Shown in pieces: positions 2,250 to 64,000 of a DNA stretch of 64,000 bases; the first letter of the stretch is position 1, and each line of letters starts with the position of its first letter. Made by a program: the position numbers and the translations under genes. The notes under the pieces are model-generated. The model saw nothing but the letters and a program-made list of their open reading frames with translations, was not told the DNA's origin and ran no database searches. Source of the DNA: Escherichia coli (GTDB lineage: Bacteria; Pseudomonadota; Gammaproteobacteria; Enterobacterales; Enterobacteriaceae); assembly GCF_046105845.1 (NCBI RefSeq), contig NZ_CP151004.1. One strand, given 5' to 3'.

Positions 2250-2265
2250 TTTACGGAGTTATCAC

Positions 2266-2721: not shown

Positions 2722-2724
2722 TCA

Positions 2725-3656: not shown

Positions 3657-4258
3657 GAAGGACTTGCGCTGGTTTCACGTTACTGGAAATGCTGGTGGCA
3701 ATTGCCATTTTTGCCTCGCTGGCACTGATGGCGCAGCAGGTGACTAACGGCGTCACACGCGTGAATAGCGCCGTCGCCGGACACGATCAAAAACTAAACC
3801 TCATGCAGCAAACGATGAGTTTTCTGACCCACGATCTGACACAAATGATGCCGCGTCCGGTAAGAGGCGATCAGGGCCAGCGTGAACCTGCGTTACTGGC
3901 GGGCGCTGGCGTGCTGGCGTCTGAGAGTGAAGGGATGCGCTTTGTGCGTGGCGGCGTGGTTAACCCGTTGATGCGTCTGCCACGCAGTAATCTGCTCACC
4001 GTCGGTTACCGCATTCATGACGGCTATCTCGAACGGTTAGCCTGGCCGCTGACCGACGCAGCAGGCAGCGTGAAGCCGACAATGCAAAAGTTGATTCCGG
4101 CGGATTCGCTCCGTTTGCAGTTCTACGACGGCACGCGCTGGCAGGAGAGCTGGTCATCAGTACAGGCAATCCCAGTGGCGGTGCGCATGACCCTGCATTC
4201 GCCACAATGGGGCGAGATTGAACGCATCTGGTTGTTACGCGGGCCGCAATTATCATGA
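3653..4258 (+). CDS. gspJ: Type II secretion minor pseudopilin GspJ
   Basis: GTG start overlapping gspI stop (GTGA); N-terminal AGFTLLEMLVA prepilin motif. Confidence 0.85.
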   Translation: MRRTCAGFTLLEMLVAIAIFASLALMAQQVTNGVTRVNSAVAGHDQKLNLMQQTMSFLTHDLTQMMPRPVRGDQGQREPALLAGAGVLASESEGMRFVRGGVVNPLMRLPRSNLLTVGYRIHDGYLERLAWPLTDAAGSVKPTMQKLIPADSLRLQFYDGTRWQESWSSVQAIPVAVRMTLHSPQWGEIERIWLLRGPQLS

Positions 4259-5232
4259 TCACCTCACCACCAAAACGCGGAATGGCACTGGTCGTGGTGC
4301 TGGTATTGCTGGCGGTTATGATGCTGGTGACCATCACGCTTTCCGGGCGAATGCAGCAACAACTTGGGCGAACGCGCAGCCAGCAGGAGTACCAGCAGGC
4401 GCTGTGGTACAGCGCCAGTGCGGAAAGCCTGGCGTTGAGCGCACTCAGTCTGAGCCTGAAAAATGAAAAGCGCGTGCATCTGGCGCAGCCGTGGGCTTCC
4501 GGCCCTCGTTTTTTCCCACTGCCGCAGGGGCAAATCGCCGTCACTCTGCGTGACGCACAGGCCTGCTTTAACCTGAATGCCCTCGCTCAGCCGACGACGG
4601 CGTCGCGTCCTATCGCGGTACAACAACTGATTGCCCTGATCTCGCGCCTGGATGTGCCTGCTTATCGGGCCGAACTGATAGCCGAAAGCCTGTGGGAGTT
4701 TATTGACGAGGACCGCAGCGTGCAGACGCGTCTGGGGCGTGAAGACAGCGAGTATCTCGCCCGCTCGGTGCCGTTCTACGCCGCCAATCAACCGCTGGCC
4801 GATATCAGTGAGATGCGCGTGGTACAGGGAATGGACGCCGGGCTTTATCAAAAACTGAAACCGCTGGTCTGTGCGCTGCCGATGACCCGCCAGCAAATCA
4901 ACATCAATACCCTGGACGTCGCGCAAAGTGTGATTCTTGAGGCGCTGTTTGACCCGTGGTTAAGCCCTGTTCAGGCGCGGGCGTTATTACAACAACGTCC
5001 GGCGAAGGGCTGGGAAGATGTCGATCAGTTTCTTGCGCAGCCGCTACTTGCTGACGTCGATGAGCGTACTAAAAAACAGCTAAAAACCGTCCTGAGCGTG
5101 GACAGCAATTACTTCTGGCTGCGTTCAGATATCACCGTGAATGAGATTGAACTGACGATGAACTCGTTAATTGTCCGCATGGGCCCACAACACTTTTCGG
5201 TTCTCTGGCATCAGACAGGAGAAAGTGAGTGA
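4255..5232 (+). CDS. gspK: Type II secretion minor pseudopilin GspK
   Basis: 325-aa ORF with hydrophobic N-terminus (RGMALVVVL); ATGA overlap with gspJ stop. Confidence 0.85.
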   Translation: MITSPPKRGMALVVVLVLLAVMMLVTITLSGRMQQQLGRTRSQQEYQQALWYSASAESLALSALSLSLKNEKRVHLAQPWASGPRFFPLPQGQIAVTLRDAQACFNLNALAQPTTASRPIAVQQLIALISRLDVPAYRAELIAESLWEFIDEDRSVQTRLGREDSEYLARSVPFYAANQPLADISEMRVVQGMDAGLYQKLKPLVCALPMTRQQININTLDVAQSVILEALFDPWLSPVQARALLQQRPAKGWEDVDQFLAQPLLADVDERTKKQLKTVLSVDSNYFWLRSDITVNEIELTMNSLIVRMGPQHFSVLWHQTGESE

Positions 5233-6407
5233 GTTCCATGCTTGAGATTTTTATCCCGCTTTGCGCCTCCGATCCCATCCGTTGGCAGCACCGTACCACC
5301 GACGTGGAGCACGGCATCTGGTCTGACGTTGACAACGAACAGCTCCAGCAATGGCTGCAAACTGATGCGATTCGACTCTACATTCCCGGCGAATGGATCA
5401 GCGTCTGGCAGGTTGAACTGCCTGATATCCCCCGCAAGCAGATACCGACTATTCTGCCCGCCTTGCTGGAAGAAGAGCTGAACCAGGATATCGATGAACT
5501 GCATTTCGCCCCGTTGAAAATCGACCAGCAACTGGCAACCGTAGCAGTGATTCACCAACAGCATATGCGCAACATTGCGCAGTGGTTGCAGGCAAACGGC
5601 ATCACCCGCGCTACCGTCGCGCCGGACTGGATGTCCATTCCTTGTGGGTTTATGGCTGGCGATGCGCAACGGGTTATCTGCCGCATCGATGAATGCCGGG
5701 GATGGAGCGCCGGGCGGGCGCTGGCTCCGGTCATGTTCCGCGCCCAGCTCAATGAGCAGAATTTACCGCTTTCGCTAACCGTAGTCGGCATTGCACCGGA
5801 AGAGCTATCAGCATGGGCTGGCCCAGATGCTGAACGTCTGACCGTTACGGCTCTGCCCGCCATTACCACTTATGGCGAACCGGAAGGAAACCTGCTAACA
5901 GGGCCGTGGCAGCCCCGCGTCAGCTACCGAAAACAGTGGGCGCGCTGGCGGGTGATGATTCTGCCGATATTGCTGATTCTGGTTGCGCTGGCAGTGGAAC
6001 GGGGCGTGACGTTATGGAGCGTCAGCGAACAGGTGGCGCAAAGCCGCACCCAGGCGGAAAAAAAGTTCTTAACACTGTTCCCGGAGCAGAAGCTGATTGT
6101 GAATTTGCGTTCCCAGGTGACGATGGCGCTGAAAAAATATCGCCCGCAGGCCGACGATACCCGGCTGCTCGCTGAGTTGTCAGCGATAGCCAGCACCCTG
6201 AAATCAGCATCACTTTCCGACATCGAAATGCGTGGTTTCACCTTTGATCAAAAACGCCAGACGCTCCACCTTCAGTTGCAGGCCGCGAACTTTGCCAGCT
6301 TCGACAAACTGCGTAGCGCACTGGCGGCAGATTATGTTGTGCAACAGGACGCGTTACAGAAAGAGGGTGATGCGGTTTCCGGCGGCGTAACGTTGCGGAG
6401 GAAATAA
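5229..6407 (+). CDS. gspL: Type II secretion inner-membrane protein GspL, full length
   Basis: 392-aa ORF; GTG start overlapping gspK stop (alternative ATG at 5238); single TM segment mid-protein. Confidence 0.82.
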   Translation: MSSMLEIFIPLCASDPIRWQHRTTDVEHGIWSDVDNEQLQQWLQTDAIRLYIPGEWISVWQVELPDIPRKQIPTILPALLEEELNQDIDELHFAPLKIDQQLATVAVIHQQHMRNIAQWLQANGITRATVAPDWMSIPCGFMAGDAQRVICRIDECRGWSAGRALAPVMFRAQLNEQNLPLSLTVVGIAPEELSAWAGPDAERLTVTALPAITTYGEPEGNLLTGPWQPRVSYRKQWARWRVMILPILLILVALAVERGVTLWSVSEQVAQSRTQAEKKFLTLFPEQKLIVNLRSQVTMALKKYRPQADDTRLLAELSAIASTLKSASLSDIEMRGFTFDQKRQTLHLQLQAANFASFDKLRSALAADYVVQQDALQKEGDAVSGGVTLRRK

Positions 6408-6408
6408 C

Positions 6409-6945
6409 ATGTTACGCGATAAATTTATTCACTATTTTCAGCAATGGCGTGAACGCCAGTTAAGCCGTGGCGAACACTGGCTTACACAACACCTGGCGGG
6501 GCGTTCTCCGCGTGAAAAGGGCATGTTACTGGCAGCGGTGGTGTTCCTGTTTAGCGTCGGATATTACGTCCTCATCTGGCAGCCGTTGAGCGAACGGATA
6601 GAACAACAGGAGACGTTGTTGCAGCAGCTGGTGGCAATGAACACCCGACTGAAGAGCGCCGCGCCGGATATTATTGCGGCGCGAAAATCCGCCACAACAA
6701 CGCCTGCGCAGGTATCTCGGGTCATCAGTGACAGTGCTTCCGTGCACTCAGTGGTCATCAAGCGGATAGCCGAGCGCGGGGAGAATATTCAGGTCTGGAT
6801 AGAACCTGTGGTGTTTAATGACCTGCTGAATTGGCTTAATGCGCTGGATGAAAAGTATGCGCTGCGGGTGACACAAATTGATGTCAGTGCAGGTGAGAAG
6901 CCTGGGATGGTGAATGTGCAGCGGCTGGAGTTTGGAGGGGGGTAA
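6409..6945 (+). CDS. gspM: Type II secretion protein GspM
   Basis: 178-aa ORF with N-terminal TM helix; GGAG RBS; position matches K-12 yghD next to pheV. Confidence 0.82.
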   Translation: MLRDKFIHYFQQWRERQLSRGEHWLTQHLAGRSPREKGMLLAAVVFLFSVGYYVLIWQPLSERIEQQETLLQQLVAMNTRLKSAAPDIIAARKSATTTPAQVSRVISDSASVHSVVIKRIAERGENIQVWIEPVVFNDLLNWLNALDEKYALRVTQIDVSAGEKPGMVNVQRLEFGGG

Positions 6946-13459: not shown

Positions 13460-14512
13460 CTAAACCGGCGCGCCAGTGCGTAACTGCTGTAACAAACGCT
13501 CCACGGGAGCCGCCAGGCCAACTGACGGCGGTTGCGCTAAGTTATACCAGAGCGCATTGCCTTCATCCATGCAGCCGGTGAATGACGACACGGGAAGCCA
13601 CATAGGCACAATATCTAAGTGGAAATGGCTGAAGGTATGCCGAAACGCGGTCAGCTGCGTCAGGTTATCGGCAGAAATCTGTCGTTGCGCCAGCCACTGC
13701 CGCAAACTTTCTTCATCGGCAAACTGCGGGAAACAGTATAAACCGCCCCACAATCCGCTCGGCGGACGCTGCGCCAGCAATACTTCATCTTCGTGCTGTA
13801 ACAGCAAAAAGTAGCCGGTGCGCTCTGGCAGCGTCTGTTTCGGTTTTTTGCCCGGATAAAGCGACCAGCTATTGTTGGCGGCGGCAATACATCCGTTTTG
13901 TAGCGGACAGAGCGAACATTTCGGCTTAGAGCGCGTACAAATCATCGCGCCCAAATCCATCATCGCCTGATTAAACCGTTCCACGCCAACCGCGGGCGTC
14001 ACCTGCTCGCTCAAACTCCATAGTTTATTCTCGACCTCTTTTTTCCCAGGCCAGCCGCTTACAGCATAGCAGCGCGCCAGCACCCGTTTGACGTTACCGT
14101 CGAGAATCGGAAAGTGCTTACCCAGAGAAAGCGAGAGAATCGCGCCTGCGGTGGAACGCCCGACGCCCGGTAACGCCGCGACTTCTTCAAAGGTTTCCGG
14201 GAATTTACCGCCGTGTAAGGTCGCCACTTGTTGTGCCGCTTTATGCAGATTGCGCGCGCGGGCGTAATAGCCAAGCCCGGTCCACAAGTGGAGAACTTCG
14301 TCCAGCGGCGCATTGGCGAGATCGGTCACCGTTGGGAAGCGCGCCATAAAGCGTTCAAAATAGGGGATAACGGTCGCAACCTGAGTTTGTTGCAACATCA
14401 CTTCTGAGAGCCATACTTTGTAGGGCGTCTTGTCAATTTGCCAGGGCAGCGTTTTCCGCCCGTATTTATCGTACCAGTCCAGAGCCTGGGCTGAAAATTG
14501 CGACGCTTGCAT
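13460..14512 (-). CDS. mutY: Adenine DNA glycosylase MutY
   Basis: 350-aa product from MQASQFSAQ; [4Fe-4S] Cys cluster CxxxxxxCxxCxxxxxC near residue 190; track ORF extends 10 codons upstream. Confidence 0.93.
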
Positions 14513-14672
14513 GGTCACCGAATTCACTGTTGTTGGGGGCAAGATTGCAGCACAGCGACGGCAGGGTGTAAACCGGAACTTTCCGCAGCCACGGCCTTAT
14601 CATGCTTGCATCCGGCAACTAACTTTGGATAATGCCCGTTTTCAGAACACTTTCACAAGCGACTAAATCTTT

Positions 14673-15392
14673 ATGAAAAACGACGTCATCTCACCGGAAT
14701 TTGATGAAAACGGCCGCCCGCTGCGCCGTATCCGTAGTTTTGTGCGCCGCCAGGGGCGACTGACCAAAGGCCAGGAACATGCGCTGGAAAACTACTGGCC
14801 GGTGATGGGCGTTGAGTTCAGCGAAGATATGCTGGATTTCCCTGCGCTTTTTGGCCGTGAAGCGCCGGTGACGCTTGAGATTGGTTTCGGCATGGGGGCG
14901 TCGCTGGTGGCAATGGCTAAAGATCGCCCCGAGCAGGACTTCCTCGGCATTGAAGTGCATTCACCGGGCGTTGGTGCGTGCCTGGCTTCTGCGCATGAAG
15001 AGGGCTTAAGCAACCTGCGCGTGATGTGTCACGATGCGGTTGAAGTGCTGCATAAAATGATTCCTGACAATTCATTGCGCATGGTGCAGCTCTTTTTCCC
15101 TGACCCGTGGCACAAAGCGCGCCATAATAAACGCCGTATCGTTCAGGTGCCGTTTGCCGAACTGGTAAAAAGCAAACTGCAACTGGGGGGCGTATTCCAT
15201 ATGGCGACCGACTGGGAACCTTATGCGGAACATATGCTTGAAGTGATGTCTTCTATTGACGGTTATAAAAACCTGTCAGAGAGCAATGATTACGTACCTC
15301 GTCCGGCATCACGTCCGGTGACGAAATTTGAACAACGTGGTCATCGTCTTGGTCACGGAGTATGGGACTTAATGTTCGAGAGGGTGAAATAA
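14673..15392 (+). CDS. trmB: tRNA (guanine-N7)-methyltransferase
   Basis: 239-aa ORF; stop overlaps yggL start (TAATG). Confidence 0.93.
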
Positions 15393-15718
15393 TGGCAAAG
15401 AACCGTAGCCGTCGTCTGCGTAAAAAAATGCACATCGACGAATTCCAGGAATTAGGATTTTCGGTGGCATGGCGATTCCCGGAAGGTACATCGGAAGAAC
15501 AGATTGATAAAACCGTTGATGACTTTATTAACGAGGTTATCGAACCGAACAAACTGGCCTTTGACGGCAGCGGTTATCTGGCCTGGGAAGGTCTGATCTG
15601 CATGCAGGAAATCGGCAAATGCACCGAAGAACATCAGGCGATTGTGCGTAAGTGGCTGGAAGAGCGCAAACTGGGCGAGGTACGCACCAGCGAACTTTTC
15701 GACGTTTGGTGGGACTAA
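15392..15718 (+). CDS. yggL: DUF469 protein YggL
   Basis: 108-aa product from [12 protein letters not shown]. Confidence 0.9.
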   Translation: MAKNRSRRLRKKMHIDEFQELGFSVAWRFPEGTSEEQIDKTVDDFINEVIEPNKLAFDGSGYLAWEGLICMQEIGKCTEEHQAIVRKWLEERKLGEVRTSELFDVWWD

Positions 15719-15760
15719 GAAAGCATACGGGCGATGACAAAGTTAAAAAAAGCGCTCGGA

Positions 15761-15872
15761 TAGTCCCCTCGCCCCTCCGGGGAGAGGGTTAGGGTGAGGG
15801 GAACAGACCAGCACTGGCGCGATTATTTACCCTCACCCCGACCCTCTCCCTAAAAGGGCGAGGGGGAAAACC
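15761..15872. repeat. GC-rich composite palindromic intergenic repeat (two inverted copies of a ~40-bp motif)
   Basis: Left arm CCCCTCGCCCCTCCGGGGAGAGGGTTAGGGTGAGGG; reverse complement of right arm CCCCCTCGCCCTTTTAGGGAGAGGGTCGGGGTGAGGG; arms about 20 bp apart. Confidence 0.55.
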
Positions 15873-15954
15873 GTGCCCCTTTTGACTTTTAAGCCAGTTT
15901 GTTATCAATCTGGGGCCAGCAAATGCTGGCCTGATTTGTTCTTGAGGGAAGACT

Positions 15955-19035: not shown

Positions 19036-19078
19036 TTTGCCGGATAATATAAAAAGTTATCCGGCAAATTATTTTTTA
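19036..19078 (+). terminator. Rho-independent terminator after yggM
   Basis: 12-bp stem TTTGCCGGATAA/TTATCCGGCAAA, 9-nt loop, then TTATTTTTT; the T-tract overlaps the stop codon of the convergent TRAP large-permease gene. Confidence 0.75.
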
Positions 19079-20377
19079 CATTAGCCCTAGTAGCTGTGGA
19101 ATGAACAAGGATATTTGCGGGATGTAAGTGATCATCATCAACGCGATTAACAATGCGGCATAAAATGGCAGCAATGGTTTGATCAAATGTTGAATCTTCA
19201 CACCTGAAATAGAACAACCAACAAATAGCGCACTACCCACCGGCGGTGTTAACAGCCCAATACAAAGGTTGGCCACCATCATAATACCGAAATGTACCGG
19301 ATCCATTCCCAGCTCTTGTGCAATCGGCAAGAAGATTGGTGTGAAGATTAGTACAGCCGGTGTCATGTCCATAAAGATGCCGACAATTAATAAGACGATA
19401 TTAATCAGCAGCAATATGACCAGTGGGTTATCAGAAATCCCCATCAACGCGTCGCTGATCATATAAGGAATATCAGCATTGGTCATTGCCCAGGACATGC
19501 CCACGGAAAAACCGATCAACAGTAATACAATCGAAGTGGTAACAACCGATTCCAGAATCAGTTTGGGTAAATCGCGCCATTTTACTTCCCGGTAAATCAG
19601 CACCGAGAGGATAAATGTGTAGACAACGGCAATTGCTGACGCTTCAGTTGCGGTAAAAATGCCGCCCAGAATGCCGCCCATTACAATGAACACCAGAAGC
19701 AAACTTGGTAAGGCATCCAGAAACGCTTTACATGCCTGAGCAAAGGTTGCTCTTTCTGAAAGTGGGTAGCCACGGCGTTTAGCAATAATGCCGCAGACTA
19801 TCATTACCGCGAGACCCATTAAGATCCCTGGCAAATATCCCGCCATAAATAGCGATGCTACAGAAACGCCGCCAGCTGTCAGGGAAAACACAATTAACAC
19901 GTTTGAGGGCGGTATCAGTAATCCAGTAATACAAGATGAGACGTTTACAGCGGTAGAAAATGCCGGATCATAACCTTCTTTGGTCTGAATGGGATTCAGT
20001 GTGCCACCAACGGCAGCAGCTGCCGCAACAGCTGAACCAGAAATGGAACCAAACATCATATTCGCCAGGACGTTCACATGACCAAGCGAACCAGGAACGC
20101 GGCCAACCATTACCTGGGCGAGGTTAATCAAACGTATCGCAATACCGCCGCTGTTCATCAGCGTTCCGGCAAAGATGAAAAAGGGGATTGCTAATAGGGC
20201 AAAGTTATCCAGTCCATTAGCCAGTCGCTGCGAAACAGTGATTGCCGCGATATCCTAGGGAAACATCAACAGCATTGAAGCTACAGTGGCAATACCGATT
20301 GAGAACGAAATGGGCACACCAATAAAGACCAGCACAAAAAAACAGCCAAACAGTGTAAGCGCGATATAACTATCCAT
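19076..20377 (-). pseudogene. TRAP transporter large permease (DctM family), interrupted by an in-frame TAG at codon 41
   Basis: ATG near 20377 directly after the small-permease stop; translation reads MDSYIALTLFGCFFVLVFIGVPISFSIGIATVASMLLMFP-stop-DIAAITVSQRL..., and the track's 360-aa ORF (19076..20158) restarts at internal Met 74 in the same frame. Confidence 0.8.
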
Positions 20378-41666: not shown

Positions 41667-41692
41667 AAGGGCCGCGAAAGCGGCCCTTTTTT
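41667..41692 (+). terminator. Rho-independent terminator of tktA
   Basis: GGGCCGC-GAAA-GCGGCCC followed by TTTTTT; the T-tract overlaps the stop codon of the convergent SPFH gene. Confidence 0.75.
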
Positions 41693-42591
41693 ACTTGGTG
41701 GAGATAAACGGAACTGTGCTGCCGGGGATCATGGTATCGGGTAGCTTACCGTCCCAACGCTCTGCAGTGGTTAGGGCAACAAGTCCGGGATTATCCCGCA
41801 GAGCTTCACCGCGCAGGCGGATAGCTTCTGCTTCAGCCGCACTTTTTAAACGAATAGTTTCAGCCTCTGCCGCGCCTCTTACGCGAATAGTCTCAGCTTC
41901 TGCTTTGGCTGCCGCCAGTTTACTGTCTGCTTCAGCCTGGGCCTGAGTTACTGCTATTTGCGCCTGGATTTTCTCTGTTTCCAGATTTTGCTTACGTGTG
42001 GCAATGGCGACTTCTGCTTTCATTCGATCTTCAATCGATTTTTCATAAGCGTCAGAAAAATCAATATTTTCAATCTGGACACCATCAATCACCACCGGGC
42101 CAACAACGGCTTTACGCATTGCATTTTGCAGATCCTGAACCAGTTTTGTACGATCCTGTACCGCGCTGATGGCGGTATATTGGCCGAAAACGTTCTCCAG
42201 TTGAGTTGGCAGCTGGCGGACGATCAGACGCTCTTTTAAAGATTCAATGGTGTTGTAGGTTGTATAAACTGCGCCAGCTTCTGAAGGTTTAATGTGGAAG
42301 CTGACTGATACTGTCATTTGTGCCGGTTGCTGGTCGCGGCTGTAGGCCCTGATAAACCACAGCCTGATTACGCGTGGAAATTTTCTCCACGCTTTCCATA
42401 AAAGGGATCTTAAAACCCAGACCCGGCTCGGCAACTTTTACGATTTTTCCGTAGCGCAGCAAAATGCCGCGTTCACCTTCATTAACGGTGTAATACGAGA
42501 GAAATGGCAGCACAACCACGGCAAGCACGCCAATGACGATAGCAATAGATTTTTGTGGGCGAAATGAGGTTATTGAAACAGGTGCTTTCAT
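41691..42591 (-). pseudogene. SPFH/band-7 (stomatin/prohibitin-like) membrane protein gene split by a frameshift
   Basis: N-terminal part (TM helix, EGERGILLRYGKIV, PGLGFKIPFMESV) in ORF 42289..42627; remainder (VSVSFHIKP..., coiled-coil Ala/Glu-rich tail) in ORF 41691..42434 in another frame; RBS AGGAAG before ATG 42591. Confidence 0.75.
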
Positions 42592-52322: not shown

Positions 52323-53183
<861 letters not shown>

Positions 53184-53957: not shown

Positions 53958-54049
53958 GCGCTATCTGATGGAAAAATAAAACAGAGGCGCTAAGCTTGCC
54001 TCCAGAGGTCCTGAATTTTAGGCAAGTCAATTAACACGGAGAGACTAAC

Positions 54050-54790
54050 GTGAAGTTCAAAGTTATCGCCCTGGCGGCATTAATGGGTATTAGCGGGATG
54101 GCAGCGCAGGCTAACGAATTGCCGGATGGACCGCATATTGTCACCTCCGGTACGGCAAGCGTGGATGCGGTGCCAGACATTGCCACTCTTGCGATTGAAG
54201 TTAACGTGGCCGCGAAGGATGCCGCTACTGCCAAGAAACAGGCGGATGAGCGCGTCGCACAATACATTTCCTTCCTTGAACTCAATCAGATCGCGAAAAA
54301 AGATATCAGCTCAGCGAACTTACGCACCCAGCCAGATTATGATTATCAGGATGGTAAAAGTATCCTGAAAGGCTACCGCGCTGTGAGAACGGTGGAAGTC
54401 ACGCTCCGTCAGTTAGACAAACTGAATTCCTTGCTGGATGGCGCGCTGAAGGCGGGTCTTAACGAAATTCGTTCTGTGTCGCTGGGCGTGGCGCAGCCGG
54501 ATGCCTATAAAGACAAAGCGCGTAAGGCAGCGATTGATAACGCGATTCATCAGGCGCAGGAACTGGCGAACGGCTTTCATCGTAAACTAGGGCCGGTATA
54601 TAGCGTGCGCTACCATGTTTCCAACTATCAGCCCAGCCCAATGGTGCGGATGATGAAAGCCGATGCCGCGCCGGTGTCCGCCCAGGAAACTTACGAGCAG
54701 GCCGCTATTCAGTTTGATGATCAGGTCGATGTGGTCTTCCAGTTAGAACCTGTGGATCAACAACCCGCTAAAACACCTGCCGCACAATAA
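54050..54790 (+). CDS. yggE: SIMPL-domain periplasmic protein YggE
   Basis: 246-aa ORF, GTG start with GGAGAG RBS, signal peptide. Confidence 0.9.
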   Translation: MKFKVIALAALMGISGMAAQANELPDGPHIVTSGTASVDAVPDIATLAIEVNVAAKDAATAKKQADERVAQYISFLELNQIAKKDISSANLRTQPDYDYQDGKSILKGYRAVRTVEVTLRQLDKLNSLLDGALKAGLNEIRSVSLGVAQPDAYKDKARKAAIDNAIHQAQELANGFHRKLGPVYSVRYHVSNYQPSPMVRMMKADAAPVSAQETYEQAAIQFDDQVDVVFQLEPVDQQPAKTPAAQ

Positions 54791-54956
54791 TACTTGTAGC
54801 CCGACGTATTGGTCGGGCTAATGCCTTTACCCGATATTGCCTCCTTTTTCTGTAATTTTCTGTAAAACCATGACGTAATCACCTATCTTTGCTCGCGGTT
54901 TCATCAAGGATAGGCTGACTGAAACGGTTAAGCGGACAAGGATGCGGGGAGCGGGG

Positions 54957-55853
54957 ATGGACATTTTTATTTCGAAAAAGATGCGCAATTTCATTTTATT
55001 AGCGCAAACCAATAATATTGCCCGGGCGGCAGAAAAAATCCATATGACGGCTTCGCCATTTGGCAAAAGCATTGCCGCGCTGGAAGAACAAATTGGCTAT
55101 ACGCTATTTACCCGCAAAGATAATAATATCAGCCTCAATAAAGCCGGACAGGAACTGTATCAAAAACTGTTCCCGGTTTATCAACGACTTTCTGCGATTG
55201 ATAATGAAATCCATAACTCAGGGCGTCGTTCACGAGAAATTGTGATTGGCATAGATAATACTTATCCGACAATTATTTTCGATCAGTTGATTAGTCTCGG
55301 AGATAAGTATGAAGGCGTGACCGCCCAGCCAGTTGAGTTCAGCGAAAACGGCGTTATCGATAATCTTTTTGACCGTCAGTTAGATTTTATTATCTCCCCA
55401 CAGCATGTATCTGCACGAGTTCAGGAACTGGAAAACCTGACTATCAGTGAACTACCACCGCTGCGATTGGGCTTTCTCGTTTCTCGCCGTTATGAAGAGC
55501 GACAAGAGCAAGAGCTGCTTCAGGAGCTACCCTGGCTACAAATGCGCTTTCAGAACCGGGCCAACTTCGAAGCAATGATTGATGCGAATATGCGACCTTG
55601 TGGGATCAATCCAACCATTATTTATCGTCCCTACAGTTTTATGGCCAAAATCAGCGCCGTGGAGCGCGGACATTTTCTGACGGTGATCCCGCATTTTGCC
55701 TGGCGACTGGTGAATCCGGCAACGCTGAAATATTTTGATGCGCCGCACAGGCCGATGTATATGCAGGAATATCTTTATTCAATCAGAAATCATCGTTATA
55801 CCGCCACGATGCTTCAGCATATTGCTGAAGATCGTGACGGGACGAGTCATTAA
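54957..55853 (+). CDS. ygfI: LysR-family transcriptional regulator YgfI
   Basis: 298-aa product with N-terminal HTH; stop overlaps scpC stop (convergent). Confidence 0.85.
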   Translation: MDIFISKKMRNFILLAQTNNIARAAEKIHMTASPFGKSIAALEEQIGYTLFTRKDNNISLNKAGQELYQKLFPVYQRLSAIDNEIHNSGRRSREIVIGIDNTYPTIIFDQLISLGDKYEGVTAQPVEFSENGVIDNLFDRQLDFIISPQHVSARVQELENLTISELPPLRLGFLVSRRYEERQEQELLQELPWLQMRFQNRANFEAMIDANMRPCGINPTIIYRPYSFMAKISAVERGHFLTVIPHFAWRLVNPATLKYFDAPHRPMYMQEYLYSIRNHRYTATMLQHIAEDRDGTSH

Positions 55854-57328
55854 CCCAGCATCGAGCCGGTTGCAATTAAATTACGGTGTAAATCGAAGAC
55901 GTGGCTAAGATCGTGGTGAATATGTCCGCCGGGCGCATTTTCCAGATAGCGATGCAGATAATCCCGATACATAGGATGTGCACAATTATCAATGATAGTG
56001 CGGGCGCGTTGAAGCGGGGAAAGACCACGCAGATCGGCGATGCCTTGTTCGGTGATGATCACTTTGACGCTGTGTTCGCTGTGATCAACATGGCTGCACA
56101 TTGGCACGACGGTTGAGATCTTGCCTTCTTTAGCAATCGACGGGGCCATAAAGATCGACAGATACGCGTTGCGTTCAAAATCACCGCTGCCACCGATGCC
56201 GTTCATCAGATCGACCCCGGCTACGTGCGTTGAGTTGGCATGCCCGTAAATATCAAACTCCAGGCCGACGTTCAGAGCGATGACGCCCAGACGACGGATG
56301 ATTTCCGGGTTATTGGAAATCTCCTGCGGACGCAACACAATGCGGCTGGCAAAGTAATCCATATTGTCGTAAATCTTGCGCAGGGAATCGGCCGAGATAG
56401 TCAGGCTGGAGGCGCTGGCCCCGCTGATTTTGCCCGTTTCCAGTAAATGCACCACCGATTCCTGTAGCACTTCCGAATACATCATGAACGGAGGAATTTC
56501 CGGGTTTTCCCCTAGTCGCGCCATGACTGCATTATTGATATTGCCCACGCCACTTTGCAGCGGCAGAAATTCCGGCGGAATACGCCCATGCGCCATTTCC
56601 TGCAACAAGAACGTGACCACGTTATCGGCAATCTGCTGGCACATGGGATTTTGCTTATCCAGCATATTACCGGCGTCGGGCAAGTTGGTTTCCACGACGG
56701 CGACAATCTTTTTCGGATCGATTTGCACATAGCGGGTACCGACGCGATCCATTGCATGGAAGATCGACACGCTATTGCGCCGCGGTGGCGCGCCAGGAAT
56801 CACAATATCTGCCAGTTCTGCAACGCGCGGATCGTGATAGTGATTGAGTTCAATGATCACTTTCTTCGCCCGCAGCAGCCAGGTCGGCGCATTACCGATC
56901 CCGCTGGTTAACCAGACTCGACCATCCGGTGCCAGTGCCGATGCTTCAATGACGGCAACATCAATTTCGCCGAAGAAACCGTAATTGACCATTTGCGCCA
57001 CTTCGCTCAAATGCAGGTCAACGAAACTCACCGCGCCCTGATTGATCTTTTTACGTAAACCGGACGATGTTTGATATGGCGCACGCCAGGAAACAGCATC
57101 GGCGTCAGAAAGTACATCGTCAGCGGCGGCGCTGATTGACGCCCCCGTCAGCAGGCGGATTTGATACGGCTTTTGGGCCTCATGCTGTTCGTTAGCTCTG
57201 CGGGCAATGGCGGTGGGAAGGGCTTTCGGCGAACCCGCCGGGGTAAAGCCGCTAAATGCCACCATGTCGTTATGCTGGATAATTTCTGCCGCTTCATCGG
57301 CGGTCATCCTTGTCCACTGAGTTTCCAT
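55850..57328 (-). CDS. scpC: Propionyl-CoA:succinate CoA transferase
   Basis: 492-aa ORF, last gene of the sbm operon. Confidence 0.92.
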   Translation of the reverse strand: METQWTRMTADEAAEIIQHNDMVAFSGFTPAGSPKALPTAIARRANEQHEAQKPYQIRLLTGASISAAADDVLSDADAVSWRAPYQTSSGLRKKINQGAVSFVDLHLSEVAQMVNYGFFGEIDVAVIEASALAPDGRVWLTSGIGNAPTWLLRAKKVIIELNHYHDPRVAELADIVIPGAPPRRNSVSIFHAMDRVGTRYVQIDPKKIVAVVETNLPDAGNMLDKQNPMCQQIADNVVTFLLQEMAHGRIPPEFLPLQSGVGNINNAVMARLGENPEIPPFMMYSEVLQESVVHLLETGKISGASASSLTISADSLRKIYDNMDYFASRIVLRPQEISNNPEIIRRLGVIALNVGLEFDIYGHANSTHVAGVDLMNGIGGSGDFERNAYLSIFMAPSIAKEGKISTVVPMCSHVDHSEHSVKVIITEQGIADLRGLSPLQRARTIIDNCAHPMYRDYLHRYLENAPGGHIHHDLSHVFDLHRNLIATGSMLG

Positions 57329-57351
57329 TTTTACTCCTTCGTTCGTAGGGA

Positions 57352-58137
57352 TTAATGACCAACGAAATTAGGTTTACGTTTTTCGAGGAAAGCGTTCATC
57401 CCTTCCTGGTAATCTTCGCTGTCATAAACCGCGCGGCGCATCCCCTGAATACGTTCAAATTCATCGGAGTTCATGGTGTGCGCTTCGCCCAGTACACGCA
57501 GCTCTTCTTTGATAACGGCAATGGCTAACGGCGCTTTCTCAGAGATGTGGTGCGCCATTTGTAAGGTGAAATCTTCCAGTTCTTCCACTTCCACAACATG
57601 GTTGAGGATGCCGACAGCCAGCGCGCGCTGGGCTGTGATTGGCGAAGCGGTAAAAATCAGCTCTTTGACAATGTGGAAGCCCGCGTCGCGGGTCAGGTTG
57701 TGAATGCCGACCAGGTTATACGGGACACCGAGGTTTACAGGTGTCATTGAGAAGGTTGAGGTACTGGCGGCGATAATCAGATCGGAACTCATGATCATTT
57801 CAAATGCGCCACCCCAAACACTACCTTCCACCATCGAAATGATCGGTTTCGGGAATTTTTGGATCATGCGGGTGATTTGACGCAATGGATCATCATAGGA
57901 GAGCGGATCGCGACCGCCAGACGGCAGTTCGTGAATATCGTGACCTGCGGAGAAGACTTTGGAACCACTCGGCGCGCGCAAAATGATACAGCGAATTTCC
58001 GGCCGGTTGAGATCGCTTAATGCCTGCATAAGATCATCAATAAAGACTTTACTTAAGGCATTAAGTTTGCGGCCATAGTTAAACTCAATGACCGCCACTT
58101 TGTTGATAGTGACAACGTTCACATACTGATAAGACAT
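57352..58137 (-). CDS. scpB: Methylmalonyl-CoA decarboxylase (crotonase fold)
   Basis: 261-aa product from MSYQYVNVVTINKV. Confidence 0.9.
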   Translation of the reverse strand: MSYQYVNVVTINKVAVIEFNYGRKLNALSKVFIDDLMQALSDLNRPEIRCIILRAPSGSKVFSAGHDIHELPSGGRDPLSYDDPLRQITRMIQKFPKPIISMVEGSVWGGAFEMIMSSDLIIAASTSTFSMTPVNLGVPYNLVGIHNLTRDAGFHIVKELIFTASPITAQRALAVGILNHVVEVEELEDFTLQMAHHISEKAPLAIAVIKEELRVLGEAHTMNSDEFERIQGMRRAVYDSEDYQEGMNAFLEKRKPNFVGH

Positions 58138-58147
58138 AAAAATTCCT

Positions 58148-59143
58148 TTAATCAAAATATTGCGTCTGGATAAATTCACTGAGCTGCCGCAGGCCGGTGC
58201 GCGGTGAGAGCGTATTGTTTTTGACCGCTAAAAGCGTCTGGCGGTAATAGCGATCGAAATCTTCATTCGCGAACAGGTGATTCAGTACTTCTTCTTCGGT
58301 TTGTTTACGCAGCCATTCCACCGATTGTTGTTGCCGCACTTGTTGCAAACGACCACTGGCAGTTAGCGCGGTTTTGAAGTCGATGATGGCGTGCCAGATC
58401 TCATCGATTCCACGTTTTTCCAGTGCGCTACAAGTCAGAACTCGTGGCTGCCATTCGTCGTATTTATGTCGCAGAATATGCAGGGCACTCTCGTACATAT
58501 GCCGGGCAATGGCGACATTGGTATGGTTATCGCCATCGTCTTTGTTGATAACGATCAGATCTGCCACTTCCATCAGCCCCTTTTTAATGCCCTGCAGATC
58601 ATCGCCACCACCGGCAATTTGCAACGAGATAAAACAGTCAACCATGCGGGCGACTTCCGTTTCCGACTGCCCGACGCCAACCGTTTCGACAATCACTACG
58701 TCATAACCCGCCGCTTCGCATAACAGCATTAATTCCCGCGCTCGCTGACTGGCACCGCCCAGATGGCCGGAGGATGGTACCGGGCGAATAAACGCCGCCT
58801 CGGCACGCGCCAGGTCATTCATGCGGGTTTTATCCCCGAGAATGCTACCGCCAGTGACCGGGCTACTGGGATCGACCGCAACAACCGCAACCTTTAGTCC
58901 CTCACGAATCAACAACATGCCAAAGGCTTCAAGAAAGGTACTTTTCCCCGCGCCGGGTGTGCCGGTAACGCCCAGTCGCAGGGCGTTACCACAGAACGGC
59001 ATAATGGCATCAAGCAGCTGCGTACTTAGCGCCTGATGACGCGGGTGACGGCTTTCTACCAGTGTCATGGCCTGGGCGAGCGTGGCACGCTCACCCTGAC
59101 GTAAGCGGCGAATACTTTCTGCCAGCGTGGCTTCATTAATCAT
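58148..59143 (-). CDS. argK: MeaB-like G-protein chaperone of methylmalonyl-CoA mutase (ArgK/YgfD)
   Basis: 331-aa ORF with P-loop GTPGAGKST; start overlaps the sbm stop. Confidence 0.92.
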
Positions 59144-61280
59144 GATGCTGGCTTATCAGATTCAGTACGTCGCGCACGCTGTCGAGCATAGGCGTACCAG
59201 GACCATAAATCGCCGCCACGCCGCGCTCCTGCAGGAAGGCGTAATCCTGTGGCGGGATGACGCCACCCGCGACCACGCAGATATCTTCGCGTCCCCATTT
59301 TTTCAGCGCTTCGACCAGTTCCGGGATCAGCGTTTTATGACCGGCAGCCAGTGAAGATGCGCCCACTACGTGAACGTCGTTTTCTACTGCCAGGCGGGCG
59401 ATCTCTTCAGGTGTAGAGAACATCGGGCTTAAATCTACGTCGAAACCGAGATCGGAATAGGCGCTGGCGATCACTTTCGCGCCGCGATCGTGCCCATCCT
59501 GGCCCATTTTGGCGATCAGAATGCGCGGGCGACGACCATTGTCGGCAAGGAACTGCTCCGTTTGCGCAACAATGGCATCGAACTCGGAAGCCGATTTCTC
59601 AGACTGATGATAGCTTTGCGCAATCACGCCGGTAACACACTGGCTTGGCACCAGATAACGGTCAAATGCCGCTTCCAGCGCATCGGAAATTTCACCAAGC
59701 GTTGCGCGAACGCGAGCGGCATTAACAGCGGCAGCCAGCAGGTTTTCGTTATGCTGTGCGGCGTGAGTCAGGGCGTTCAACGTGGCGGTTACGGCGGCAT
59801 CATCACGGGTGGCGCGAATGCGTTCCAGTGAAGCAATCTGCTCGTTACGCACCATCACGTTGTCGATCTCAAGTACATCGGTTTCGTCTTCGTGATCCAG
59901 TTTGTACTTGTTGACACCAACGATGACACGCTTGCCCTGGTCGATCAGCGACTGTTCGCGCGCTGAGGCCTCTTCGATCATTCGTTTTGGCAGACCTGCT
60001 TCGATCGCTTTCGCCATACCACCGGCTTCGTCGATCTGTTGGATAATAGCTCTGGCTTGTTTGACGATTTGATCGGTCAGCGACTCAACGTAATAGGATC
60101 CGGCCAGTGGATCGACGGTGCGGCAGAGTTCTGATTCTTCCTGAATGATGATCTGGGTATTGCGGGCAATGCGTGCTGAGAAATCGGTAGGCAAACCAAG
60201 CGCTTCATCAAAGGCGTTGGTATGCAGTGACTGAGTACCGCCCAGCGTTGCAGCCAGTGCTTCAATGGTGGTGCGGATAACGTTGTTATACGGATCCTGT
60301 TCAGTCAGGCTCCAGCCTGAGGTCTGGCAGTGGGTACGCAGCGCCAGTGATTTCGGATCCTGTGCGCCAAATCCACTGACCGCTTCGCTCCATAAATAAC
60401 GTGCCGCACGCAACATGGCGACGTTCATAAACAGATCCATGCCAATGCCGAAGAAGAACGACAGGCGAGGAGCGAAGTCATCAATTTTCAGCCCGGCGGA
60501 GATTGCTGCTTTGATGTACTCAATCCCATCAGCGAGCGTAAATGCTACCTGCTGCACGCAGTTGGCACCCGCTTCACCCATATGGTAACCGCTGATACTG
60601 ATGGTATTAAATCGCGGCATGTTGCCGGAACACCAGGCGATGATGTCTGCGATAATACGCATTGACGGTTTTGGCGGGTAAATATAGGTGTTGCGGCAAA
60701 GATACTCTTTGAGGATATCGTTTTGAATGGTGCCGGTCAGTTTATCGGGTGTAACACCTTGCTCTTCTGCGGCGACAATATAAAACGCCAGTACTGGTAG
60801 TACTGCGCCATTCATGGTCATCGAAACCGACATTTTATCCAGCGGGATCTGGTCGAACAGGACTTTCATATCTTCCACGGTGTCGATAGCAACGCCCGCT
60901 TTGCCGACGTCGCCCGCCACGCGCGGGTTATCGGAGTCGTAGCCTCGGTGGGTGGCAAGGTCAAACGCAACGGAAAGACCTTTTTGCCCGGCGGCCAGGT
61001 TACGGCGATAAAAAGCGTTGGACTCTTTTGCTGTTGAAAAACCAGCATACTGACGGATGGTCCACGGTTGGGCGGTATACATAGTGGCACGCGGGCCACG
61101 AACGTAGGGAGGCAAACCAGGAAGGGTACCTGTCACCTCCAGATTATCGAGATCGGCTTCGGTATACAGCGGCTTGATGGCGATCCCTTCCGCGGTTTGC
61201 TGAACCAGCGAGTCGACAGTTTTCTCCCGACGGCTCAATTCCTTGTTGGCAAGCTGTTGCCACTCCTGCACCTTAGACAT
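59136..61280 (-). CDS. scpA: Cobalamin-dependent methylmalonyl-CoA mutase (Sbm)
   Basis: 714-aa product from [15 protein letters not shown]. Confidence 0.93.
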
Positions 61281-61483
61281 TATTTGCTCCGTAAAACGCA
61301 ATCAAAATGAGGGTATTTGCGCCTACGGTGAGCTTTTTACGTGGGTTTGTCGCCAGCAAAAAAAATGCATTCAGACGTCGTTTTTTGCCGCCTGAGATTT
61401 GTCTATTTTGTGATGTGATTCAAGGAATACAAAAAGAAGTGAGGATAACGCCTGATATGTGCTATCAGGCATTATTTGATGGA

Positions 61484-62377
61484 TTAATCCTGACGAAGGA
61501 CTTTGTGACCATAATCGAGCAACGCATCAGTGACTTTACGCATCATGCGGCTTTCAGGAGCAAAGCGGTGCCAGTAGAGCATCCGGCGTTGAAATAGCCC
61601 TGGCGTTAAGTCAATCAGTTCACCGCTGGCCAGTTCTTTCTCGATTTGCAGGTGCGGGATCATACAGCAGGTGGTGCCCTGGCGAGCAAGTTGCACGAAC
61701 GCTTCTGAAGAATTAACGATATGGCACGGTACGCTGCCTGGGGGCAGATCGAAGTTTTGCTGCAAAAAGGCCTGGTGCATATCGTCAAGATGGTCAAAGG
61801 CGACCACAGGTGCTTTCAATAATGCCGAACGCGTTACGCCGTTAGGGAAATATTTTTCGGCAAACGGTTTTGAGCTGACGAACAGATAGTCAAGCGCACC
61901 GAGCTTATCGACAAGACAACTCGGCAGCGCCTGATGTTGAATACTCACCGCGCCGACCACTTCGCCGCGGCGCAGACGTTCCTGAGTGCGGGTTTCATCT
62001 TCTACCTGCAAGTTGAGGCGGATAGGCGAATCAGCCAACACAGGAGCCAGCGCCGGAAGCAACCACGTCGCCAGACTGTCAGCGTTGACCGCCAGTGAAA
62101 GCAGCAGCGGAGTTGAACCGGTTTGTTCATCGCCCAGCCACTCTTCTTCCAGTAACTCCACCTGGCGCAGCAGTGCCAGCAGTTTTTGCCCTTGTTCTGT
62201 CGGGCGCGGTGGTACGGTACGCACCAACAGTGGCTGCCCGAACATATTTTCCAGTTGCTTAATGCGCTGTGAGACGGCTGATTGTGTAATGCACAGCTTT
62301 TGTGCCGCGCGCTCAAATCCTCGTTCACGTATCACCGCATCCAGTGCCTGTAATGTTCTGTAGTCCGGGCGTTTCAT
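61484..62377 (-). CDS. argP: LysR-family regulator ArgP (IciA)
   Basis: 297-aa product from [25 protein letters not shown]. Confidence 0.92.
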
Positions 62378-62804
62378 TGCTGTTGTCTGCTCCTGGTAAA
62401 TGCTTTTTCCTGCACTATGACACAATTTTGTGTCAGGTTGCATATACCGAAGCCGTCGGCGGGTAACATTTGTATTCGTGGTAAAACGCGCAGCTTAAAA
62501 GATCAGGGATTTGCGCTAATGCATTTCGCTCAGCGAGTTCGCGCCCTGGTTGTGTTGAATGGCGTGGCGCTATTGCCTCAATTTGCCTGTAAACAGGGGC
62601 TTGCGAACGGTGAACTGGTGCGCCTGTTTGCACCGTGGAGCGGCATACCCAGATTGTTGTATGCCTTATTTGCGGGGCGAAAGGGGATGCCTGCCATTGC
62701 GCGATATTTTATGGATGAGTTAACCACGCGGCTTGCCAACGGGGTCTGAATCGCTTTTTTTGTATATAATGCGTGTGAAATTTCATACCACAGGCGAAAC
62801 GATC

Positions 62805-63464
62805 ATGACGCAGGATGAATTGAAAAAAGCAGTAGGATGGGCGGCACTTCAGTATGTTCAGCCCGGCACCATTGTTGGTGTAGGTACAGGTTCCACCGCC
62901 GCACACTTTATTGACGCGCTCGGCACGATGAAAGGCCAGATTGAAGGGGCCGTTTCCAGTTCAGATGCTTCCACTGAAAAACTGAAAAGCCTCGGCATTC
63001 ACGTTTTTGATCTCAACGAAGTCGACAGCCTTGGCATCTACGTTGATGGCGCAGATGAAATCAACGGCCACATGCAAATGATCAAAGGCGGCGGCGCGGC
63101 GCTGACCCGTGAAAAAATCATTGCTTCGGTTGCGGAAAAATTTATCTGTATTGCCGACGCCTCCAAGCAGGTTGATATTCTGGGCAAATTCCCGCTGCCA
63201 GTAGAAGTTATCCCGATGGCACGTAGTGCAGTGGCGCGCCAGCTGGTGAAACTGGGCGGTCGTCCGGAATACCGCCAGGGCGTGGTGACCGATAACGGCA
63301 ACGTGATCCTCGACGTCCACGGCATGGAAATCCTTGACCCGATAGCGATGGAAAACGCCATAAATGCGATTCCTGGCGTGGTGACTGTTGGCTTGTTTGC
63401 TAACCGTGGCGCGGACGTTGCGCTGATTGGCACACCTGACGGTGTCAAAACCATTGTGAAATGA
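62805..63464 (+). CDS. rpiA: Ribose-5-phosphate isomerase A
   Basis: 219-aa product from [18 protein letters not shown]. Confidence 0.95.
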
Positions 63465-63719
63465 TCTGACGGGGGAACCTCCCCCGTTAAAAAAATTCTC
63501 TTCATTAAATTTGGTGACATGTGTCACGTTTTTACCTGGCTATTGTCGATTGCTCTAAATAAACCCTCTAAACCAGCATATTCATCCAAGAAATACCTTT
63601 GCGTGATATTTCCTCAACATTGCGACGCAAACGTTCATATTGCCGCAATATTATTTTTTGATATGTTGAAAGGCGGATGCAAATCCGCACACAACATTTC
63701 AAAAGACAGGATTGGGTAA

Positions 63720-64000
63720 ATGGCAAAGGTATCGCTGGAGAAAGACAAGATTAAGTTTCTGCTGGTAGAAGGCGTGCACCAAAAGGCGCTTGAAAGCCTT
63801 CGTGCAGCGGGTTACACCAACATCGAATTTCACAAAGGCGCGCTGGATGATGAACAATTAAAAGAATCCATCCGCGATGCCCACTTCATCGGCCTGCGAT
63901 CCCGTACCCATCTGACTGAAGACGTGATCAACGCCGCAGAAAAACTGGTCGCTATTGGCTGTTTCTGTATCGGAACAAACCAGGTTGATCTGGATGCGGC
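63720..64000 (+). CDS. serA: D-3-phosphoglycerate dehydrogenase, 3' end cut by window edge
   Basis: Reads MAKVSLEKDKIKFLLVEGVHQKALESLRAAGYTNIEFHKGAL... to the window end. Confidence 0.93.
   Translation, partial: MAKVSLEKDKIKFLLVEGVHQKALESLRAAGYTNIEFHKGALDDEQLKESIRDAHFIGLRSRTHLTEDVINAAEKLVAIGCFCIGTNQVDLDA

Follow-up and report, generated by a model that had tools for sequence, protein, structure and literature searches.

We are highly confident that the locus between positions 54957 and 61280 of the window (the whole stretch of E. coli DNA that was analyzed, 64,000 nucleotides in length) represents the chromosomal scpA-argK-scpB-scpC ("sleeping beauty mutase") operon together with the convergent gene srsR (ygfI), all five genes being intact and their products presumably active. 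Gene identity, intactness, conservation, and purifying selection were observed directly in the present analysis, and the enzymatic activity of the scp products in this strain is predicted from their sequences. An intact operon is already known and ordinary, and as such it offers nothing new: the scp genes have been characterized since 2000 and are covered by automatic annotation. Its regular association with srsR and with a conserved dyad upstream of scpA provides a concrete and cheap handle on the operon switch, which matters for engineering the production of propionate, 1-propanol, and odd-chain products.

Gene content and layout of the scp locus

Genes were placed using the list of open reading frames and direct comparison with E. 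coli K-12 MG1655. On the plus strand, srsR (positions 54957 to 55853) encodes a LysR-family regulator of 298 amino acids and converges on scpC, the last gene of the minus-strand operon. The scpC gene (ygfH; 55850 to 57328) encodes a propionyl-CoA:succinate CoA transferase of 492 amino acids, scpB (ygfG; 57352 to 58137) a biotin-independent methylmalonyl-CoA decarboxylase of 261, argK (meaB/ygfD; 58148 to 59143) the 331-amino-acid G-protein chaperone of the mutase, and scpA (sbm; 59136 to 61280) the adenosylcobalamin-dependent methylmalonyl-CoA mutase itself, with 714. All five genes start with ATG and end with TAA. As originally predicted, the stop codons of srsR and scpC overlap by 4 bp at 55850 to 55853, where TTAA could be read directly and where K-12 shows the same geometry. 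The tight gene overlaps that had also been claimed are real for scpA and argK, which share 8 bp (ATGATTAA) with the argK start lying over the scpA stop, but argK and scpB as well as scpB and scpC are separated by gaps, of 10 and 23 bp, respectively. The spacings of -8, +10, and +23 bp between these same-strand genes are compatible with a single transcription unit, from which the four genes would be cotranscribed, and no promoter- or terminator-like sites clearly above chance were found inside the operon. No terminator separates scpC from the convergent srsR. Apart from short chance-level repeats, the locus contained no repeats or mobile-element signatures.

The identities and order of the five genes were confirmed at the predicted coordinates, with every product exceeding its NCBIfam cutoff. 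ScpA scored 1251.7 bits against NF006944 (cutoff, 876) and carries the MM_CoA_mutase domain (PF01642, residues 28 to 539) and the B12-binding domain (PF02310, residues 586 to 701); its cobalamin-ligating DxHxxG motif (DGHDRG, residue 595) aligned to that of human MUT, and its best solved relatives in structure comparison were the human and P. shermanii mutases. ArgK (NF006958; score, 494; cutoff, 329; Pfam MeaB) has a P-loop, GTPGAGKS, at residue 61 and the guanine-specificity NKxD motif (NKDD) at residue 200, and its gene adjoins that of the mutase, as expected of a MeaB/ArgK chaperone; the top structure match, PDB 2P67, was deposited as "LAO/AO transport system kinase." ScpB belongs to the crotonase superfamily (NF008506; score, 487; cutoff, 257) and aligned over residues 1 to 261 with PDB 1EF8 and also at full length with PDB 6N92. 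ScpC exceeded the cutoffs of both TIGR03458 (754 versus 659) and NF053853 (603 versus 500), contains the N- and C-terminal AcetylCoA_hydro domains (PF02550 and PF13336), and has CoA-transferases as its closest solved structures. SrsR matched the NF047842 equivalog (score, 635; cutoff, 425) and contains the Pfam HTH_1 and LysR_substrate domains. All five exact protein sequences are already public under the label E. coli, that of ScpC in at least 1000 contigs, while the exact ScpA sequence is rare (4 to 7 contigs).

Comparison with E. coli K-12

E. coli K-12 (b2917 to b2921) has the same five genes in the same order, on the same strands, with the same lengths, 8-bp overlap, 10- and 23-bp gaps, and TTAA stop overlap, and it shares the flanking argP-scpA...srsR-yggE synteny. 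When the reading frames were checked against K-12, as the original prediction had proposed, neither indels nor internal stops were found in any of the five genes, whose nucleotide identity to K-12 was 97.3 to 99.2%. ScpB and SrsR are identical in amino acid sequence to their K-12 counterparts, whereas ScpA differs at five positions (N3K, H27Q, I398V, A500T, and V537A), ArgK at four (Y50F, T54A, I88V, and R226H), and ScpC at four (N11D, K52Q, D121E, and V277E); none of these 13 changes falls inside the motifs checked. The 110 nucleotide differences in the four enzyme genes, described as silent or conservative, comprise 97 synonymous and 13 nonsynonymous ones, with a pN/pS of 0.042 (dN/dS of ∼0.04). 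Given the 99.3% identity of ScpA to the characterized K-12 protein, it most likely acts as an adenosylcobalamin-dependent isomerase. The region upstream of scpA is identical to that of K-12 at 202 of 203 positions, and thus nothing points to different expression.

Intact, deleted, and decayed alleles in the population

The intact state of the operon had been considered worth noting, especially next to decayed accessory genes elsewhere in the window. Such decay could indeed be detected in two genes, namely, a TRAP large-permease gene with a TGG-to-TAG change at codon 41 (positions 20255 to 20257) and a prohibitin-family gene with an 8-bp deletion near position 42349. The other 56 reference genes checked (window positions 1026 to 54790) had matching lengths and no internal stops; 55 of them had no gaps at all, and one 84-nt hypothetical open reading frame had an in-frame 6-nt gap. 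Intactness of the scp operon, on the other hand, did not turn out to be exceptional, since at least 80% of the region was present in 4272 of 5425 complete E. coli genomes, making the intact operon the majority state in about three quarters of sequenced strains. Best identities per window region against 5426 complete genomes ranged from 98.1 to 99.1%.

One 4273-bp deletion was common to 1114 of the 5426 complete genomes. It takes out argK and scpB completely and the greater part of both scpA and scpC, and it lies between imperfect 15-nt repeats, TCAATGATAGTGCGG (window position 55989) and TCAATGGTGGTGCGG (60262); srsR is intact in all 1114 genomes. In strain JCM 5491 (locus L003), which carries this allele, the flanks are the same as in the window, srsR is intact, and the scpA promoter region and 5' end have been kept, but the scpA remnant contains further small deletions; the window represents the undeleted form. 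Since there is a single junction, the large deletion was one event inherited by a clade rather than recurrent decay. A different set of lesions was seen in one O157:H7 strain: scpC has a 28-bp duplication, scpB has lost 10 bp, and srsR contains a stop. Matches to the duplication junction at ≥99% identity came from about 57 genomes, which were taken as carriers, an assignment resting on this identity band because the query is repetitive and coverage is ambiguous. A literature search for the deletion allele or for the phylogroup distribution of the scp genes returned nothing relevant.

These alleles, together with the very weak expression of the operon in K-12 (PMC3850637), might suggest a cryptic relic that is drifting towards loss and whose intactness here is merely a matter of time: the large deletion is frequent, and the O157-type duplication in scpC has about 57 presumed carriers. 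We nevertheless regard this as very improbable. The low pN/pS against K-12 argues against drift, as does the persistence of intact five-gene modules with conserved noncoding elements in at least 48 species from several Enterobacterales families, and the single junction reduces the large deletion to one event. Across the population, about a fifth of sequenced strains share a single ancient 4.3-kb deletion, with strong purifying selection elsewhere, and this indicates natural use of the "silent" operon in those lineages that have retained it.

Linkage of srsR and the scp operon across species

In the 48 species that have a ScpB orthologue, 47 loci could be assessed, and in every one of them an SrsR orthologue (58 to 100% identity) converges on scpC; this linkage spans at least nine unrelated chromosomal contexts. 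Of 48 related loci, ranging from Escherichia to Yersinia, 37 retain the 4-bp stop overlap in the form YTAR. The same convergent arrangement was found at locus L008, in Hafnia (L059), and in an assembly labeled Aeromonas sp. MdU4 (L060). One SrsR homologue with 68% identity adjoins cadCBA, with no scp genes there. In this comparison, srsR accompanies the scp operon as a conserved partner and travels with the module across many species.

Conserved elements upstream of scpA

A candidate operator upstream of scpA is a 33-bp dyad at positions 61356 to 61388 (GCAAAAAAcGAcg...TTTTTTGC, followed by TGGCGACA in the operon direction), whose end lies 75 nt from the scpA ATG; the corresponding K-12 segment is the spacer between argP and scpA. 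The dyad is unique in the window, with 0 occurrences expected by chance, and moves with the five-gene module, its length being fixed in every Enterobacteriaceae context, including those with nonhomologous flanks. Variants exist in the Sodalis group and Yersinia. The forms GCAAAAAAcGA and GCAAATAATGA are among the dyad variants. Such conservation suggests that the operon may be regulated through this dyad. About 20 nt further upstream, a candidate CRP/FNR-like site (CTTGA-N6-TCACA; 61409 to 61424, minus strand) stands out as a conserved block when scpA upstream regions are aligned and reads TTTGA-N6-TCACA in most other genera. We assign it tentatively and on account of the conserved block, since in the window alone the CRP consensus was at chance level (28 two-mismatch matches versus 25 expected). 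A scan for sigma-70-like promoters gave no match upstream of scpA, with overall counts at or below the shuffled expectation; this fits weak expression and says no more than that there is no strong promoter. No cobalamin riboswitch or other known RNA was matched in Rfam over positions 54000 to 64000, even at a permissive E value.

SrsR as a possible regulator of the operon

The original prediction correctly placed a LysR-family gene, srsR, next to the operon, but its role as regulator of the operon is not established. Its linkage and the dyad suggest, without proving, that SrsR is the operon's own regulator. SrsR may be a dedicated scp regulator acting at the dyad, with the operon "sleeping" for want of an inducer in laboratory media, an explanation that we hold tentatively and at somewhat less than an even chance. 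It would account for the invariably convergent srsR across at least nine contexts, extending to L008, Hafnia, and the assembly labeled Aeromonas, for the retention of the stop overlap in most loci, and for the movement of the dyad with the module. Moreover, the left half of the dyad, TCGTTTTTTGC, agrees with the published SrsR box in 8 of 11 positions, and srsR, scpB, and scpC have all been inactivated in the O157:H7 strain. In vivo confirmation was not obtained for fucAO, one of the published targets (PMC11011485), leaving the true SrsR regulon unsettled.

Several observations point the other way. Genomic SELEX with purified SrsR recovered ten loci at a signal cutoff of 150, and scp was absent from them (PMC9181523). 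With a position weight matrix built from 13 published SrsR boxes, the better half-site of the dyad scored 7.3 bits, ranking 193rd among 128,000 window positions, and the other half scored 1.9; with so weak a half-site match, we do not claim the dyad as an SrsR site. The published box (TCAGATTTTGC) had no match with at most one mismatch near the operon, and the one 1-mismatch match in the window, at position 41981, is no more than expected by chance and has nothing to do with the operon. In addition, LysR regulators are usually encoded divergently from their target genes rather than convergently, srsR has remained intact in the 1114 genomes that lost the enzyme genes, and the homologue beside cadCBA does without scp genes altogether. 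In the boldest reading, which is possible but still short of probable, srsR would be no bystander but would belong, as a fifth gene, to a mobile module with the four enzyme genes, and SrsR would control the operon via the 33-bp dyad, possibly together with a CRP/FNR-type site. If this reading is true, the operon would "sleep" because an inducer is missing, not because its promoter is dead, and the "stationary-phase stress" regulon published for SrsR would be of secondary importance.

Physiological role of the encoded pathway

According to the published biochemistry of the K-12 proteins, ScpC would move CoA from propionyl-CoA to succinate, ScpA with adenosylcobalamin would isomerize succinyl-CoA to methylmalonyl-CoA, and ScpB would decarboxylate methylmalonyl-CoA to propionyl-CoA, with the ArgK/MeaB GTPase loading and protecting ScpA. 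The net cycle would convert succinate to propionate and CO2 and may also need an epimerase from elsewhere. To our knowledge, B12 is not synthesized by E. coli, and transcription of the operon under laboratory conditions is minimal; the pathway would therefore stay silent without both a supply of B12 and forced expression. Genes for B12 uptake and adenosylation lie outside the window. The literature agrees with the earlier statement that the operon is known and poorly expressed in K-12, describing a B12-dependent pathway with weak expression (PMC3850637).

The pathway had also been called complete. While its four genes are present, completeness is disputed: the native operon is reported to lack the methylmalonyl-CoA epimerase step (PMC5512728), and Pfam and NCBIfam assignments of the five genes revealed no epimerase gene within the module. 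Since no propionate was produced by the native operon in glucose minimal medium when no epimerase was added (PMC5512728), the cycle as given in textbooks could be incomplete or could have a different role, e.g., in amino-acid-derived propionyl-CoA metabolism. The latter could even be the main one, with the scp genes handling propionyl-CoA and methylmalonyl-CoA from amino acid or odd-chain breakdown rather than succinate fermentation. Besides the glucose result, such a role is favored by the increased degradation of amino acids to propionate upon operon expression, which also permitted isoleucine degradation (PMC5512728), and by the position of the module beside microcompartment genes (BMC, EutP/PduV, and EutQ) in the assembly labeled Aeromonas sp. 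MdU4. We still consider it unlikely to be the main function, as the in vitro activities of Haller et al. (2000), as cited in PMC3850637, fit the succinate-to-propionate cycle, and engineered strains supplied with B12 made propionate or 1-propanol via this cycle (PMC3850637).

Comparison with other mutase systems

ScpA aligned over ∼700 residues with human MUT (E value, 2.5e-278) and, over a similar length of ∼700 residues, with MutB of P. shermanii, while ArgK aligned with both MeaB and MMAA. With the mutase-MeaB systems of Propionibacterium shermanii, Methylobacterium, and humans (MUT/MMAA), the E. coli proteins share a DxHxxG motif for B12 binding and the P-loop of the G protein. Unlike in the mutase systems compared, the E. 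coli mutase is encoded by one gene, without a separate small-subunit gene in the operon, and it is paired with a crotonase-fold decarboxylase and a CoA transferase instead of a biotin-dependent transcarboxylase or a propionyl-CoA carboxylase pathway. This contrast draws on established knowledge and on the Pfam and NCBIfam assignments.

Gene content and layout

Comparison of the ORFs between positions 53000 and 64000 with the annotated E. coli K-12 MG1655 region identified one plus-strand frame stopping at 55853 and four minus-strand frames spanning 55850-61301. The former is srsR (ygfI; 54957-55853, 897 nt), and the latter are scpC (55850-57328, 1479 nt), scpB (57352-58137, 786 nt), argK/meaB (58148-59143, 996 nt) and scpA/sbm (59136-61280, 2145 nt). 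The intact reading frames of the original prediction were borne out, since all five genes start with ATG, end with TAA and match K-12 in length, with zero indels, frameshifts, truncations or internal stops. Amino acid changes relative to K-12 number five in ScpA, four each in ArgK and ScpC and zero in ScpB and SrsR. As had been proposed, the convergent srsR and scpC stop codons share 55850-55853, where the bases read TTAA, and their geometry is the same in K-12. Tight gene overlaps had also been described; this holds for scpA/argK (8 bp, ATGATTAA), the sole overlapping pair in the operon, but not for the remaining junctions, which are spacers of 10 and 23 bp, each with Shine-Dalgarno-like sequences. 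Perfect hairpins directly 3' of argP (GCCTGATAGCACATATCAGGC, 61450-61470) and 3' of yggE (GCCCGACGTATTGGTCGGGC, 54798-54817) are likely terminators that flank the five-gene module at both ends.

The four enzyme genes differ from K-12 by 97 synonymous and 13 non-synonymous substitutions (pN/pS = 0.042), and srsR by seven and none, respectively. These counts mean that purifying selection on the operon and srsR is strong. Between argP and scpA, the 203-bp spacer has a single base that is not shared with K-12, and a consensus scan found no sigma-70-like promoter in it; the sequence therefore hints at no difference in expression from K-12. An Rfam search across 54000-64000 returned neither a cobalamin riboswitch nor any other family. 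The poor expression in K-12 that had been invoked agrees with a report that the operon is hardly expressed there and requires added cyanocobalamin (PMC3850637).

The intact operon is the majority state in E. coli

The intact operon was originally considered noteworthy beside decayed genes. Two decayed genes are indeed present: the TRAP transporter large-permease gene (19076-20377, minus strand) carries W41stop (TGG>TAG at 20255-20257) relative to strain Z1323HEC0462, with intact adjoining small permease and binding-protein genes, and the prohibitin-family gene (41691-42591, minus strand) is frameshifted relative to strain VCSW5 by an 8-bp deletion (GGATTACA) near 42349, at nt 244 of the VCSW5 gene. 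An intact operon, however, is not unusual: of the 5425 matching complete E. coli genomes, 4272 have at least 80% of 54957-61280. None of 5426 complete E. coli genomes is closely related to the source strain (best per-region identity, 98.1-99.1%), whose type II secretion genes gspF-yghD (1026-6945), all intact, are only 94.7-98.5% identical to their best match.

The rest of the 5425 matching genomes carry a deletion allele that keeps only srsR, an scpC stub and an scpA stub. An example is JCM 5491 (ATCC 11775), a strain of phylogroup B2. The junction (3533-3547 in the JCM 5491 locus) lies inside an imperfect 15-nt repeat with copies at 55989-56003 (TCAATGATAGTGCGG) and 60262-60276 (TCAATGGTGGTGCGG), 4273 bp apart; with these 4273 bp, argK and scpB are lost entirely, as is the greater part of both scpA and scpC, but srsR stays intact. 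A 151-bp query spanning the junction matched 1114 of 5426 complete genomes over its full length; the deletion is therefore one inherited ancestral event rather than recurrent loss. Separately, O157:H7 strain ECP19-2498 carries a 28-bp tandem duplication in scpC (equivalent to window 57117) and a 10-bp deletion in scpB (57631-57640), and its srsR is interrupted by an internal stop; regulator and enzymes thus decayed together in this strain. The duplication junction was matched at ≥99% identity by ∼57 genomes, taken as carriers, and is absent from other O157:H7 strains.

Linkage of srsR to the operon

Sampling one genome per species with ScpB gave 48 loci (ScpB identity, 77-100%). An SrsR orthologue (58-100% identity) is convergent to scpC in all 47 loci with DNA available downstream of scpC, and flanking-ORF clustering placed the module in at least nine unrelated chromosomal contexts: argP/yggE (∼31 loci), Superficieibacter, two arrangements in Kosakonia, Yersinia, the Sodalis group, Acerihabitans with a MAG, and an assembly labelled Aeromonas. 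On a Citrobacter contig, the module lies between modE and modF. In 37 of the 48 loci the stops overlap by exactly 4 bp (YTAR), the others comprising eight longer overlaps, one abutting pair and two gaps (128 and 186 bp). Conversely, when SrsR homologues are the starting point, those of Hafnia and of Aeromonas sp. MdU4 (as the assembly is labelled) likewise adjoin scpC; one homologue, 68% identical, adjoins cadCBA, where scp genes are absent. Genomic SELEX with purified SrsR, as YgfI is now named, yielded ten loci; scp is not among them and is nowhere mentioned in that paper. One SELEX target, fucAO, was unaffected by srsR in a later study (PMC11011485). We only tentatively suggest that srsR is part of the module and regulates the operon, a reading we consider somewhat doubtful. 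Were it true, one could directly test what activates the "sleeping beauty mutase" operon, which would be of moderate interest.

In the MdU4 assembly, the module directly adjoins microcompartment genes (14456-15897 of the MdU4 locus; BMC shell, EutP/PduV, EutQ), another B12-linked pathway. Enterobacterales-type modules, with ScpB 78-95% identical to that of E. coli, also occur under the record names Bacillota bacterium MAG, Martelella alba and Aeromonas sp. RU39B; this points to assemblies that are wrongly labelled or contaminated, or to a transfer of recent date.

Conserved non-coding elements

Alignment of scpA upstream regions from all contexts revealed a 33-bp dyad, GCAAAAAAYGA...TTTTTTGC, then TGGCGACA, of constant length across all Enterobacteriaceae contexts and with variants in the Sodalis group, Yersinia and Hafnia. 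It occurs once in the window (61356-61388; chance expectation, none). Some 20 nt further upstream, a TTTGA-N6-TCACA block resembling CRP/FNR sites is conserved (CTTGA-N6-TCACA at 61409-61424, chance-level when taken alone). The left half of the dyad, read on the opposite strand (TCGTTTTTTGC), shares 8 of its 11 positions with the published SrsR box. A matrix derived from the 13 published boxes gives this half only 7.3 bits, which places it 193rd among 128,000 window positions, and gives 1.9 bits for the right half. Given these weak scores, we keep binding of the dyad by SrsR as a hypothesis, backed by synteny and not by the motif.

Upstream of srsR, a block at 54848-54867 (TTCTGT-N6-TCTGTAAAA; TTCTGTGAGYAACTGTAAAA in other genera) is also kept in non-homologous contexts (the Citrobacter mod locus, Superficieibacter) and probably serves as promoter or operator of srsR. 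Acerihabitans and the related MAG carry GCAAAAAATCG there instead, resembling the scpA dyad half-site.

Comparison with known systems

The textbook cycle derives from biochemical work on K-12 (Haller et al. 2000, cited in PMC3850637): ScpC, ScpA/ArgK and ScpB act in turn, with net conversion of succinate to propionate and CO2. The four genes of this pathway, originally called complete, are intact, but completeness is contested because the native operon has been reported as incomplete: the mutase product is (R)-methylmalonyl-CoA, and glucose gave propionate in minimal medium only once methylmalonyl-CoA epimerase was added (PMC5512728).

The original gene assignments hold, all five proteins exceeding the curated NCBIfam cut-offs for specific families: ScpA (NF006944, score 1252, cut-off 876), ArgK/MeaB (NF006958, 494, 329), ScpB (NF008506, 487, 257), ScpC (TIGR03458, 754, 659) and SrsR (NF047842, 635, 425). 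Pfam architectures are as expected, namely, MM_CoA_mutase and B12-binding in ScpA, MeaB in ArgK, ECH_1 in ScpB, N- and C-terminal AcetylCoA_hydro domains in ScpC, and HTH_1 and LysR_substrate in SrsR. ScpA has the cobalamin-ligating DGHDRG motif, and ArgK has both a P-loop and an NKDD motif. Exact sequences of all five are already in public databases, labelled E. coli, those of ScpB, ScpC and SrsR in at least 1000 contigs each and the rare ScpA allele in only a handful.

The operon is thus already known, ordinary and in its majority state; the original observation is confirmed, its interpretation is supported with corrections, and the finding is accordingly of low interest. Among solved structures, the nearest to ScpA are the methylmalonyl-CoA mutases of human and P. 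shermanii; for ArgK it is 2P67, deposited under the name "LAO/AO transport system kinase", for ScpB methylmalonyl-CoA decarboxylase 1EF8, and for ScpC class I CoA transferases.
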